This document shows, piece by piece, positions 4,423 to 25,209 of a stretch of 64,000 nt of DNA. A model generated the notes under the pieces. It made no database searches. It was given only the letters and a program-made list of their open reading frames with translations, and was not told where the DNA came from. The number at the start of each line of letters is the position of its first letter. The stretch's first letter is position 1. The stretch is from assembly GCA_963771355.1 (NCBI GenBank), contig CAVYTA010000006.1, positions 1,920,001-1,984,000 of the forward strand, written 5' to 3'. The position numbers were made by a program, and so were the translations under genes. The DNA is from an uncultured Candidatus Rokubacteria bacterium. GTDB lineage: Bacteria; Methylomirabilota; Methylomirabilia; Rokubacteriales; CSP1-6.

Positions 4423-5129
4423 GCATGCTCGAGCTGCGGAAGGTCACCGCGGGTTACGGTCACTTCACCGCCCTGTGGGATGTGGACCTCACGGTGGCGT
4501 CCGGCGAGGCGGTGGCGGTGGTGGGTCCCAACGGCGCGGGCAAGACCACCCTCATGCGCGTGATCTCGGGGCTCATCGCCCCGCGCGCCGGCGAGCTCGT
4601 CTTCGAGGGGGCCGCGCTCGCCGGCCGGCCCGCCCACGAGATCGTGGCCCACGGCATCGCCCACGTGCCCGAGGGACGCCGGCTCTTCCCCGCGCTCACC
4701 GTCGCCGACAATCTCAAGATGGGCGCCTACCTGCCCGCCGCGCGGGCCCGATACGCGGAAAGCCTGGAGCGCGTCTACACCCTCTTCCCGGTCCTGGCGG
4801 AGCGAAGCACCCAGCGCGCGGGCAGCATGTCCGGCGGCGAGCAACAGATGCTCGCGGTGGGGCGCGCCCTCATGTCGCGGCCGAAGATCATCCTGCTCGA
4901 CGAGCCCTCCATGGGCCTGGCCCCGGTGGTGGTCCTCCGCCTCTTCGACCTCATCCGGCGCGTGCGCGAGGAGGGTTACACCATCCTGGTGGTGGAGCAG
5001 AACGTGCGGCAGGTGCTCAAGCTCGTGGACCGCGCCTATCTCCTCGAGGTGGGCCGCATCAAGATGGAAGGCCGCGCCGCCGACCTCTCCGAGCACGACT
5101 TCGTCCGCAAGGCATATGTGGGTTTGTGA
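4419..5129 (+). CDS. livF: ABC ATP-binding protein, LivF-like
   Basis: ATGA overlap; GPNGAGKT, VPEGRRLF, MSGGEQQM, LLDEPSMGLAP. Confidence 0.9.
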   Translation: MSMLELRKVTAGYGHFTALWDVDLTVASGEAVAVVGPNGAGKTTLMRVISGLIAPRAGELVFEGAALAGRPAHEIVAHGIAHVPEGRRLFPALTVADNLKMGAYLPAARARYAESLERVYTLFPVLAERSTQRAGSMSGGEQQMLAVGRALMSRPKIILLDEPSMGLAPVVVLRLFDLIRRVREEGYTILVVEQNVRQVLKLVDRAYLLEVGRIKMEGRAADLSEHDFVRKAYVGL

Positions 5130-5250
5130 GGCGCAGCAGGTTTGTGAGCCGCAGCCGAAGGCGAGGCGAACGCATATGGAAATCTTGAGTCGCCGCCAAC
5201 CGGCTCCGTCAATCGTCAGTCGCCGCCAACCGGGTCGCCTCCAACCGTGA
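5126..5250. repeat. Intergenic repeat element flanked by GTGA duplication, with three agtcgccgccaaccgg-like copies
   Basis: agtcgccgccaaccgg at 5188-5203 and 5218-5233, degenerate third copy at 5234-5247; ggtttgtgag at 5121-5130 and 5139-5148. Confidence 0.65.
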
Positions 5251-21903: not shown

Positions 21904-23094
21904 ATGATCACCCGTGTGCTCACCATGCTGCTGGCCGGCCTGCTGGCGCTGCCGCTGGCAGCCGAGGCCCAGAAAACGATCAAGGTCGGCATGCCCATGC
22001 CCCTCTCGGGTCCGCCCGCGCTGTTCGGCGAGCCCGCCTCCAAGGGCGCCCAGATGTTGGTGGACGAGGTCAACGCCAAGGGCGGCGTGCTCGGCGGGCG
22101 CAAGCTCGAGCTCATCGTGCGCGACTCCAAGGCGGACGCCAACGAAGCGGTGCGGGTGGCGCGCGAGCTCATCCTCAAGGACAACGTGGACTTCCTGGTG
22201 GGCACGCTCACCTCCGCGGAGGGGCCGGCGGTGTCCGTGGTGGCGAAGGAGAACAAGATCGTCTTCATCGCCCCCATCCCGAAGACCGACCAGCTCACCG
22301 CTCCCGACAAGCTCCACCCGTACGTGTTCCGCATCTCCGCCAATACCACCATGGAGGGCCGGAGCGCGGCGGAAATCGTGGCCAAGTGGCCGGTGACCCG
22401 GGTGGCGACGATGAGCTTCGACTACGCATATGGCCAGGACGTCACCAGGGCATTCGTGGAGCACCTGAAGAAGGTCAAGCCGTCGGCGCAGATCGTGGAC
22501 CAGCAGTGGCCGAAGCTGGGCGAGCAGGACTACAACCCCTTCATCAATGCCCAGATGGGGAAGAAGCCCGAGGCGGTGTTCTCGTCGATCTGGGGCGGCT
22601 TCTTCGTGACCTACTCCAAGCAGGCCAAGGCGCTGGGCATGTTCGACGCGCTGAAGTACCACTTCATCGGCGTGGGGGAAGCGGGCTCGCCGGAGACCAC
22701 CAAGTCCATGGGCAAGGACTACCCGGTGGGGATCTGGGGCAACTCCTACGACGCGTTTTACTGGGGCGAGACGCCGGCCCACCGTGACTACACGGCCCGG
22801 CTGGCGAAGTATCTCAAGGACGAGTACCCGTCCTCCTGGGCCATCCAGGGCTACACCGGCATGCAGTTCCTCGTCGAGGCCATCACCAAGGCCGGCAGCA
22901 CCGACTCGGACAAGGTGGCCAAGGCGCTCCTCGGCCTCACCATCGACACGCCCATCGGCAAGCAGACGATCCGGGAAAAGGATCATCAGGCGAATCGCGG
23001 CCAGCTCTACGGCAAGACCGTGATGGACCCGAAGTATCCGTTCCCGATCATGAAGCCGGTGGAGTACGTCGACCCCACCAAGTTCATGGACTAG
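21904..23094 (+). CDS. Branched-chain amino acid-type ABC substrate-binding protein
   Basis: Sec signal AEA; IKVGMPMPLSG; VNAKGGVLGGRKLELIVRD. Confidence 0.9.
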   Translation: MITRVLTMLLAGLLALPLAAEAQKTIKVGMPMPLSGPPALFGEPASKGAQMLVDEVNAKGGVLGGRKLELIVRDSKADANEAVRVARELILKDNVDFLVGTLTSAEGPAVSVVAKENKIVFIAPIPKTDQLTAPDKLHPYVFRISANTTMEGRSAAEIVAKWPVTRVATMSFDYAYGQDVTRAFVEHLKKVKPSAQIVDQQWPKLGEQDYNPFINAQMGKKPEAVFSSIWGGFFVTYSKQAKALGMFDALKYHFIGVGEAGSPETTKSMGKDYPVGIWGNSYDAFYWGETPAHRDYTARLAKYLKDEYPSSWAIQGYTGMQFLVEAITKAGSTDSDKVAKALLGLTIDTPIGKQTIREKDHQANRGQLYGKTVMDPKYPFPIMKPVEYVDPTKFMD

Positions 23095-23250
23095 CCGCTG
23101 ATCACACGGGCGATCGGATTCGGGGCGGGGCACACCCCCTTTGCTCAGTAAAGCATTCGCCGGGGGCGCGCCCCGCCCCGCCTCCGCTCGCCCTCCCGCT
23201 CGGCCTCACTCACGCACTTCATCGCTTCCCCTTCTAGATTGAAAAGCTAG
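23091..23250. mobile_element. MITE-like palindromic insertion flanked by CTAG duplication
   Basis: CTAG at 23091-23094 and 23247-23250; internal inverted repeat cggggcggggcacaccccc(23121-23139)/gggggcgcgccccgccccg(23162-23180). Confidence 0.5.
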
Positions 23251-24136
23251 ATGCCGGATCCTTCCTTCGTTTTTGCGCAGTCGCTGAGCGGGCTCACGGC
23301 GGCGATGTTCCTATTCCTCATCGCGTCTGGGCTTGTCGCTGATCTTCGGGGTGTTGCGCGTGTTGAATTTTGCGCACGGCACCTTCTACATGCTGGGGGC
23401 GTACACCGCGTACCAGTTCGTGCAGTGGCTGGGGCAGGAGGGGGGGATGTTCTGGGTGGCCGCGCTGGGCGCGGCGTGCACCATCGGGCTCCTGGGCGGC
23501 ATCGTGGAGCGCTTCCTCTTCCGTCACCTCTACGGCAAGGAGGAGCTCTACCAGCTCCTGTTCACCTACTCGCTGGTGCTGATCCTGGGGGACGTGGCCA
23601 AGATCATCTGGGGCACCCAGCAGAAGTCCGTGGGCCGCCCGCCCGGGCTCACCGGCTCCTTCTCCGTCTTCGGCGCCACCGTGCCGCACTACAACCTCTT
23701 CATCCTCCTGCTCGGCCCCGCCATCGCGCTCGGCTTCTGGTTCGTGCTCCAGCGGACGCGCACCGGTCGCTTCATCCGGGCCGCCGCGCTGGACCGCGAG
23801 ACCCTGGGGGCCCTGGGCGTGAACGTGAGCGCGCTCTACACCGGCGTCTTCGTGCTCGCGTCGTTCCTGGGCGGCCTCGGCGGTGCCCTCATCACGCCCA
23901 TGCGGGCGGTGGTCCCCGGCATGGACACCGACGTCATCGTGGACGCCTTCGTGGTGGTGGTGATCGGCGGGCTCGGGTCCTTCTGGGGCACCTTCCTGGG
24001 CGCGCTGATCTACGGCCAGGTGCTGTCCTTCGGCATCCTCTTCTTCCCCCGCTTCTCCATCTTCGCGATCTTCGCCCTCATGGCCACCGTGCTCGTCATC
24101 CGCCCCTGGGGCCTGCTCGGGAAGCCGCTGAAATGA
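23251..24136 (+). pseudogene. livH: LivH-like ABC permease with a +1 frameshift near 23333 (possibly a sequencing error)
   Basis: MPDPSFV...LIASG joins LSLIFGVLRVLNFAHG after deleting one T. Confidence 0.8.
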
Positions 24137-24233
24137 TCGTCGCCCGTCCAGCAGACGCCGCCGCGGGCGATCAATGCGGTGGGGGGGTCTGGGGGAGGAG
24201 CGGCGCCGCTCCCCCCCAGCTTCAGTCAATGAT
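24132..24233. mobile_element. 96-bp palindromic insertion flanked by AATGAT duplication
   Basis: aatgat at 24132-24137 and 24228-24233; G-run followed by hairpin ctgggggaggagcggc/gccgctcccccccag (24189-24219). Confidence 0.6.
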
Positions 24234-25209
24234 GCCGCGAATTCCCTGGGGCTTGCTCATCCTCGTCGCGGCGTTCTTCGTGCCCGCGCTCGGCTCGCGC
24301 TTCTACACCTTCCTCGCCAACGACGTGGTGATCTGGGCGCTGTTCGCCACCAGCCTCAATCTCCTCGTGGGCTATACCGGGCTCGTGTCCTTCGGCCATG
24401 CCGCCTACTTCGGGATCGGCGCCTATACCACCGGCATCCTGATGAAGAAGCTGGGCGTCACCTTCCTGCTCGCCTTTCCCGCCGCCGGCGTGGTGGCCGG
24501 GCTCTTCGCCGTCTTCTTCGGCTTCTTCTGCGTGCGCCTCACGCGTATCTACTTCGCCATGCTCACCCTCGCCTTCGCCCAGATCGTGTGGGCCATCTGC
24601 TTCAAGTGGAACGAGGTCACCGGCGGGGAGCAGGGCATGCCGGAGATCCCCTACCCCAGCTTCGACTGGGTGGAGACGGCAGCCGGGTGGCTACCGTTCC
24701 TCGGCGGGTACCGGACGTCCGACTACTTCTACTTCCTCTGCATCATCCTGGTGGCCGCGGCGCTGTGGGTGTTGCGCCGGATCGTCGGCTCGCCCTTCGG
24801 GCGCATGCTCACGACTATTCGCGAGAATCCTGAACGGGCGGAGTTTATTGGGGTGAACGTCCGGCGCTACGAGCTGGCCGCCTTCGTCCTCGCGGGCGCC
24901 TTCGCGGGCCTGGCCGGCGGATTGTTCGGCATCTTCAACCGGGGAGTCTTCCCCGACTTCGCCTACTGGACCAAGTCCTCCGAGGTGCTCATCATGACCC
25001 TCCTCGGCGGCATGGGCACCTTCGTGGGACCGAGCGTGGGCGCGGTGGTGCTCATCCTGCTCAACCAGCAGATCGTGTCCTACACGCAGTACTGGCCGCT
25101 GGTGCTGGGCAGCATCCTGGTCCTCCTCCTCTTCGTCTTCCCCGGCGGCCTCGCCGGCGCCGGCCAGGACCTCTGGCGCTGGACCCGGCGGAGGCTCGCC
25201 CGTGCTTGA
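24133..25209 (+). CDS. livM: LivM-like ABC permease (alternative start 24229/24232; N-terminal 32 aa derive from an inserted element)
   Basis: LLVGYTGLVSFGHAAYFGIGAY, YFAMLTLAFAQ, TIRENPERAEFIG. Confidence 0.85.
   Translation: MIVARPADAAAGDQCGGGVWGRSGAAPPQLQSMMPRIPWGLLILVAAFFVPALGSRFYTFLANDVVIWALFATSLNLLVGYTGLVSFGHAAYFGIGAYTTGILMKKLGVTFLLAFPAAGVVAGLFAVFFGFFCVRLTRIYFAMLTLAFAQIVWAICFKWNEVTGGEQGMPEIPYPSFDWVETAAGWLPFLGGYRTSDYFYFLCIILVAAALWVLRRIVGSPFGRMLTTIRENPERAEFIGVNVRRYELAAFVLAGAFAGLAGGLFGIFNRGVFPDFAYWTKSSEVLIMTLLGGMGTFVGPSVGAVVLILLNQQIVSYTQYWPLVLGSILVLLLFVFPGGLAGAGQDLWRWTRRRLARA

Follow-up and report, generated by a model that had tools for sequence, protein, structure and literature searches.

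A G/C hairpin repeat of Rokubacteria and its probable relay mini-ORF at a livH–livM junction

MIRUs insert at start codons and carry an internal ORF coupled at −4, according to the passages of two papers that summarise Supply et al. 1997 (PMC12548453, PMC3184786). Non-functional short ORFs across attC hairpins, and ORF-11 of attI1, restore downstream translation, as stated in the part of PMC8876359 on such reading frames. The locus analysed here had been put forward in a preliminary description as part of an undescribed mobile-repeat system; "undescribed" is too strong a word, since the cited passages describe MIRUs in similar terms. Judged from its sequence, the spacer between livH and livM holds a G/C hairpin repeat of Rokubacteria and, probably, a relay mini-ORF, predicted to be translated, that would hand ribosomes over from livH to livM.

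The window, which is the whole analysed stretch of 64,000 nucleotides, contains two adjacent genes of ABC permeases. Their assignments to the LivH/UrtB and LivM/UrtC types score below the curated cut-offs of the named families. The genes and the junction between them have the following features.

23251..24136, + strand: upstream gene, LivH/UrtB-type ABC permease, the TGA stop of which overlaps the next ATG (ATGA)
24132..24137, + strand: left AATGAT, which includes the ATGA stop/start overlap
24133..24232, + strand: predicted relay mini-ORF, which starts in the livH ATGA overlap and is fused to livM in the window letters
24137..24176, + strand: variable left spacer, single-copy in the genome and unrelated to that of the two core-bearing congeners
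24161..24164, + strand: short-read mismatch site, at which the window is 2 bases shorter than in 5/5 covering runs
24177..24219, + strand: conserved repeat core of family A, with a short head, a G7 run, a 3-nt link and a bulged G/C hairpin
24179..24187, + strand: G-T-G7 arm, which mirrors the purine strand of the stem and is the predicted third strand of a class I purine-motif triplex
24189..24219, + strand: hairpin, in which one base (24196) is bulged and the closing pair covaries
24228..24233, + strand: right AATGAT, with a constant ATGA part and a variable first base
24229..25209, + strand: downstream gene, LivM/UrtC-type ABC permease, with its own ATG

Taken at face value, the letters of the window contain no stop in the frame that leads from the ATG of the livH overlap into livM. 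The DNA has a G+C content of 70% and the core is itself free of stops, so the open frame alone carries little weight and was tested against relatives and sequencing reads. The C run of the hairpin is followed after 11 nt by the livM ATG, without a Shine-Dalgarno-like motif between them. The folding z-scores of the whole segment 24132–24233 are weak (−1.6 and −2.0), and a search of 22800–24600 against Rfam returned 12 matches, all far under the gathering scores.

The repeated part of the spacer is limited to the ~43-bp core at 24177–24219, which is present in this genome in five intact copies and one interrupted copy. A 23-nt pattern of the family occurs in 37 of the 61 genomes of the order, with 0–21 copies in each, and the reversed control pattern gave two matches in total. 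A scan of species genomes with the pattern identified at least 119 stretches; among the 80 matches listed, almost all belong to Rokubacteria/Methylomirabilota and none is mycobacterial. Nine matches with labels other than Rokubacteria were checked. Six have flanks 78–94% identical to proteins of this genome and are probably mislabelled, and the flanks of the other three are only 43–44% identical. As a sequence pattern, family A is thus nearly confined to Rokubacteria among the matches listed. Viral contigs contain no exact match to the pattern, and a literature search, largely of open papers, returned no report on repeats of Rokubacteria or on this core.

We assembled 170 unique copies of family A, including 60 further copies fetched from part of the listed matches. 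The closing pair of the stem is of the Watson-Crick type in 145 of the 157 canonical copies and is formed by four pair types, compared to a mean of 53 after shuffling. One base of the stem is bulged. The G arm is conserved to 94–100%, which is partly fixed by the search pattern, and is unpaired in the RNA fold. The lengths of the arm, stem, and C run are 7/7/7 in 135/170 copies. In all five copies with a stem of six Gs, which come from about three junctions, the arm is likewise six Gs long, compared to 5/162 of the others. The G arm and hairpin are predicted to form an intrastrand DNA triplex of class I, in the sense of the relevant section of PMC4666352.

The positions of the copies relative to genes were determined using starts from a simple gene finder trained on this genome. 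Between co-directional genes there are 131 sense and 24 antisense copies, whereas five copies are at convergent and three at divergent junctions, and seven further copies were unplaced. Co-directional junctions therefore hold 155 of the 163 placed copies, compared to ~76% of the junctions of this genome. The first in-frame start is most often located 7–14 nt past the hairpin. The genes flanking the copies are unrelated, and the copies fall into 61 junction clusters. Copies from several genera can occupy an identical junction (in clusters of up to 11), which indicates that some copies are old. Of 30 orthologous junctions that are empty in this genome, 20 are tight (≤8 nt), compared to a background of 37%. 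The earlier view that small palindromic dispersed repeats come and go at tight junctions is supported by this difference.

Nineteen orthologous livH–livM junctions were recovered and read. The same hairpin core is located at the junction in two congeners (L002 and L003), in which the stop-to-start distances are 99 and 97 nt, and is absent from the remaining 17. In both congeners, the frame opened by the ATG of the overlap has 32 codons and stops short of the livM ATG by 4 or 2 nt, the repeat is out of frame with livM, and the hexamer is not duplicated. Filled and empty alleles thus exist. The preliminary description had predicted that excision would restore TGATG; none of the four empty alleles from the same genus matches this product, the TGATG geometry is found in 2 of 13 more distant empty alleles, and the precise 96-bp excision is absent from all short-read contigs examined over the site. 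The orthologous junction of a member of another genus (L005) holds a tandem pair of a different repeat.

The strong sense bias of family A (131 versus 24), the covariation of its stem, and its retention at one junction across genera are features that a maintained cis-regulatory RNA hairpin with a leader peptide could have, acting as an attenuator-like element or mRNA stabiliser that tunes the downstream gene. Pro-Pro close to the end of two of the three reading frames also fits such a role. Nevertheless, we consider this explanation unlikely. A regulator of this kind is difficult to reconcile with the diversity of the flanking genes, the lack of the core in 17 of the 19 livH–livM orthologues, the varying frame of the peptide, and the 24 antisense copies. 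Moreover, the conserved arm does not pair in the RNA fold, the section of PMC4666352 on purine-motif triplexes states that RNA does not form them, and no Rfam family reaches its threshold.

The existence of filled and empty alleles would also be expected of a MITE-like element with a defined length, moved by a cognate transposase into ATGA sites and duplicating its target there. In agreement with such an element, end-to-end direct repeats of at least 6 nt were found in 12 of 91 copies, compared to 6.6 by permutation (p 0.03), and NTGA is present at both ends in 26 of 109 copies. However, the latter number is close to the product of the marginal rates (56 and 45 of 109, about 23), NTGA at both ends can be explained by selection for coupling alone, and 8 of 90 unrelated right ends match the left end of the window copy just as well. 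Family A has no terminal inverted repeats and no fixed left end; the left part is not conserved, and filled-minus-empty lengths vary widely. The fixed ends and six-base target duplication that had been ascribed to a 96-bp element are not supported, and position 24228, the first base of the right hexamer, is G instead of A in three of four runs, so the six-base duplication itself is variable. Across the short-read contigs, both spacer ends retain the inner ATGA. Five copies from one genome (L110–L114, G043) have a longer conserved left part with CTGA-like words at both ends and are possibly a young subfamily with definable ends.

The search for a cognate enzyme, which had been recommended as a check, covered Y1, IS91-type, IS110-type, and reverse-transcriptase genes and identified no candidate among them. 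Y1 transposase (PF01797) is absent from all eight genomes of the genus, including this one, and the repeats flank none of the 20 Y1 loci elsewhere in the order. No family A copy is located within about 4–5 kb of the two IS91-type and two IS110-type matches in this genome, where there is one loose match to family B; a reverse transcriptase was not found. A MITE-like origin is therefore improbable, and we retain the reading of the spacer as a hairpin repeat crossed by a relay mini-ORF.

The length of the spacer was compared with eight public short-read runs, of which five, from five studies, had a contig over 24161–24164 and three had no coverage there. All five (X2, X14, X13, X12, and X4 from studies P2, P5, P4, P3, and P1, respectively) have two extra bases at this site, and the contigs of X4 and X12 are otherwise identical to the window over 24090–24201. 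Short-read contigs drop rare variants and break at the repeat, so that no single contig spans the whole spacer. The spacer of the population is most likely 98 bp long and out of frame, and the 96-bp in-frame state is most likely the result of a two-base assembly error, or the absence of the two bases may instead be a 2-bp deletion private to the strain. AATGAT is indeed repeated 96 bp apart in the window letters (24132 and 24228), as the preliminary description noted, but the actual spacing is probably 98 bp and the second copy often begins with G. Similarly, the insert is stop-free in the livM frame in the window, whereas the frame from 24133, once two unspecified letters are inserted, has 33 codons and ends on the TGA at 24230–24232, which overlaps the livM ATG. 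Another indel of the window is located ~830 bp upstream of the two-base site, at the 5′ end of livH, where a surplus base near 23329–23335 breaks the frame. This base is missing in the contigs of all four runs checked and is probably an assembly error. The 652-aa ORF 23251–25209 is a product of the surplus base and the two-base loss, not a gene.

A real 96-bp insert that, in this strain, adds a 32-residue N-terminal extension to LivM in the manner of the Rickettsia palindromic elements is permitted by the window letters, and family A does include fusions (8 of 106 copies outside this genome) and related repeats do lie in frame inside genes of this genome, but we give it a low probability in view of the two extra bases in every covering run, the second indel 830 bp upstream, the out-of-frame repeats of both congeners, and the rarity of fusions in the family relative to chance. 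The claim of a new LivM peptide is to be dropped.

The relay mini-ORF reading was examined across the family. A junction was counted as bridged if a frame that opens no more than 8 nt from the upstream stop closes no more than 8 nt from the next start. Twelve sense copies without a start within 60 nt were set aside, and 119 were kept. In ten of these, the upstream gene reads through the hairpin, and seven of the ten end at −1 or −4. The 109 intergenic copies comprise 52 with a mini-ORF, nine fusions, 19 uncoupled copies, and 29 without a start at the stop, so that 48 (about 44%) are unbridged by the strict rule. The number of bridges exceeds all three controls. Permutation of the left parts gave 26 expected bridges, and none of 2000 permutations reached 52; shifting the frame by +1 and +2 gave six and seven bridges; and repeat-free junctions of 55–130 nt are bridged in 14 of 410 cases, these being from this genome only whereas the repeat copies are mostly from relatives. 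When one copy is counted per junction cluster (61 clusters), there are 27.6 bridges compared to 14.4 expected. Fusions, in contrast, are under-represented (9 of 109, compared to 16 by permutation). The stops of the mini-ORFs are at −4 in 21 copies, at −1 in 11, and at 0 in eight. The frame of the window copy, with two bases added and a −4 overlap, is the one most used by the family (33/52) and also that of both congeners. Among the 29 copies without a start at the stop, the frame from the first ATG of the spacer ends on the start in 13, compared to 7.3 expected (p 0.0015). The translational coupling across the repeat that the preliminary description assumed thus appears to be preserved.

The bridging peptides are encoded in three frames, have 21–86 residues with unrelated left parts, and contain Pro-Pro near the end in two of the three frames. 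The use of three frames and variable lengths indicates that it is the frame that counts, and probably not the product, and we expect the peptide of the mini-ORF to be without function. The hairpin, placed at the 30S binding site without a Shine-Dalgarno motif, would block fresh initiation on livM. The throw-away frame leads from the livH stop through the hairpin to the livM start and would enable ribosomes to re-initiate. Insertions at coupled junctions may persist mainly if the frame that runs from the upstream stop across the hairpin has its own stop at −4, −1, or 0 relative to the next start. The blocking step predicts lower coupling of copies that have their own Shine-Dalgarno motif; however, these copies are not less often coupled (6/13 versus 55/96, p 0.56), which counts against the model, and a distance test likewise gave no support.

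It is likely that family A is a mobile selfish element. The conserved G arm may fold back to form the predicted DNA triplex, which could be linked to how the repeat spreads. In a more speculative scenario, which we hold to be rather doubtful, family A is an actively spreading element without a transposase, the triplex of which is recognised by a host or trans-acting enzyme that targets stop/start overlaps. Its A-rich tail would supply the overlap, making it a portable coupling cassette that unites BoxC triplex repeats and MIRUs across phyla.

The window contains three other repeats, which the preliminary description had joined with the 24132 locus into a single system. They form separate families: B (670–762; 15 loci), C (5126–5250; 38 loci), and D (23091–23250; 7 loci). 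One family for all four loci was rejected, as cross-matches do not exceed about 27 nt, with E values of 0.02 or worse. Only 670–762 shares the layout of a G run and hairpin with family A, on the other strand. Family B has a weak excess of bridges (7/19 versus 3.9, p 0.017), with some of the start calls doubtful. Families B and C are also found in frame inside genes. The repeat at 670–762 is in frame in the ORF ending at 1238, to which it adds about 30 residues and is an RPE-like case; from its motif, we take this ORF to resemble a SAM-dependent methyltransferase. The junction at 5126–5250 is unbridged by the rule, and the ORF from its overlap stops 58 nt before the predicted start. Family C (5143–5170 and 37 other loci of this genome, G000) consists of short triloop hairpins that often begin 1–4 nt after a stop codon. 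It forms tandem arrays and is located inside predicted genes at 10/38 loci, for example near the gene start at G000:C1:178800. A family C unit is nested in a family A copy at G000:C6:1703252-1703341, and both fall within the 3′ end of an oppositely oriented gene. Family D (23108–23193) forms a long hairpin, of which the 21-nt loop is conserved and the arms vary; it has seven copies and a folding z-score of −3.0.

Some junctions are shared by different repeats. The junction G000:C6:2388574-2388752 holds family B in this genome and family A in two other genera (L032 and L034), and families A and C are at nearly one place in L052 and G000:C1:178778-178938. Family A precedes a gene that we take to be ftsW-like in several genera (L031, L044, L048, L049, L100, and L047), in one case in the opposite orientation, which points to repeated insertion. 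Such junctions suggest insertion hot spots used by different repeats.

Family A provides a counted and controlled case, outside mycobacteria, of a hairpin repeat that would survive in operons by means of throw-away ORFs. Its junctions may serve as natural reporters for termination-reinitiation across a strong hairpin. "Small proteins" of this kind, with 20–50 residues, and such N-terminal extensions are likely to be by-products where they are annotated in Rokubacteria. Since unexplained triplex-type repeats are here tied to start-codon sites, the mechanism of their spreading becomes easier to test.

Family A resembles the MIRUs, as far as they are characterised in the passages cited above, in being intercistronic, dispersed, 40–100 bp long, and near start codons, with a G/C-rich internal inverted repeat and with filled and empty alleles. 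Both have a small ORF that overlaps its neighbours, which in family A, as predicted translation, bridges 52/109 junctions, 21 of them at −4. Four-base direct repeats flank filled MIRU sites; ATGA is present at both ends of the livH–livM spacer, and four-base repeats are at both ends in only 26/109 copies of family A, which is about the product of the marginal rates. Family A differs from MIRUs in the phylum of its host, and no mycobacterial sequence is among the listed matches to its pattern. In addition, only its ~43-bp core is conserved, so that the start of the ORF comes from variable flanks in any of three frames; it has 0–21 copies per genome compared to about 40–50 of MIRU; and it has a triplex-like G arm.

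The BoxC, PIT, and TM_ECO repeats, as presented in the available portion of Holder et al. 2015 (PMC4666352), are built similarly, with a G/C hairpin of 35–45 nt and a mirror G arm in which T matches A of the purine strand. They are likewise intergenic, variable between relatives, and not located beside mobile elements. By its sequence, family A has their three-strand mirror layout, which could form G.G-C and T.A-T triplets, with one bulge. The order in family A is G arm, purine strand, and pyrimidine strand (class I), whereas TM_ECO is of class II (C stem, G stem, and G arm). The consensus of family A also differs, and its bulge and paired extension exceed the strict ITxF loop limit. TM_ECO is described there as having no strand bias, in contrast to the 131 sense and 24 antisense copies of family A, which abut start codons.

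As small bulged palindromes that are mostly intergenic and sometimes in frame at gene ends, REP/RAYT (REPtron) and the Rickettsia palindromic elements are also similar, in the sections of PMC3733652 that treat them. Family A copies have no flanking Y1 transposase, are single instead of inverted dimers, and are near the downstream start rather than the upstream stop, with convergent sites rare (5/163). In GTAG-type REPs, the head is expected at a short spacing from the palindrome. Family A has no GTAG/CGTC head beside the stem; its GTGG is 6–7 nt from the stem, inside the G arm. Compared to the Rickettsia palindromic elements as summarised in that source, the repeat is not in frame here after the two bases are restored, and is so in a minority of copies elsewhere. 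It differs from a MITE in its lack of terminal inverted repeats, fixed length, and target-site duplication, with a weak excess of end repeats only. By analogy with the short ORFs across attC hairpins in the cited part of PMC8876359, the mini-ORF of family A would carry ribosomes over the hairpin to re-initiate, in ordinary operons instead of cassette arrays and with no attC core sites evident. Family A probably functions in the manner of a MIRU and has the construction of a BoxC/triplex repeat, but is a member of neither family.
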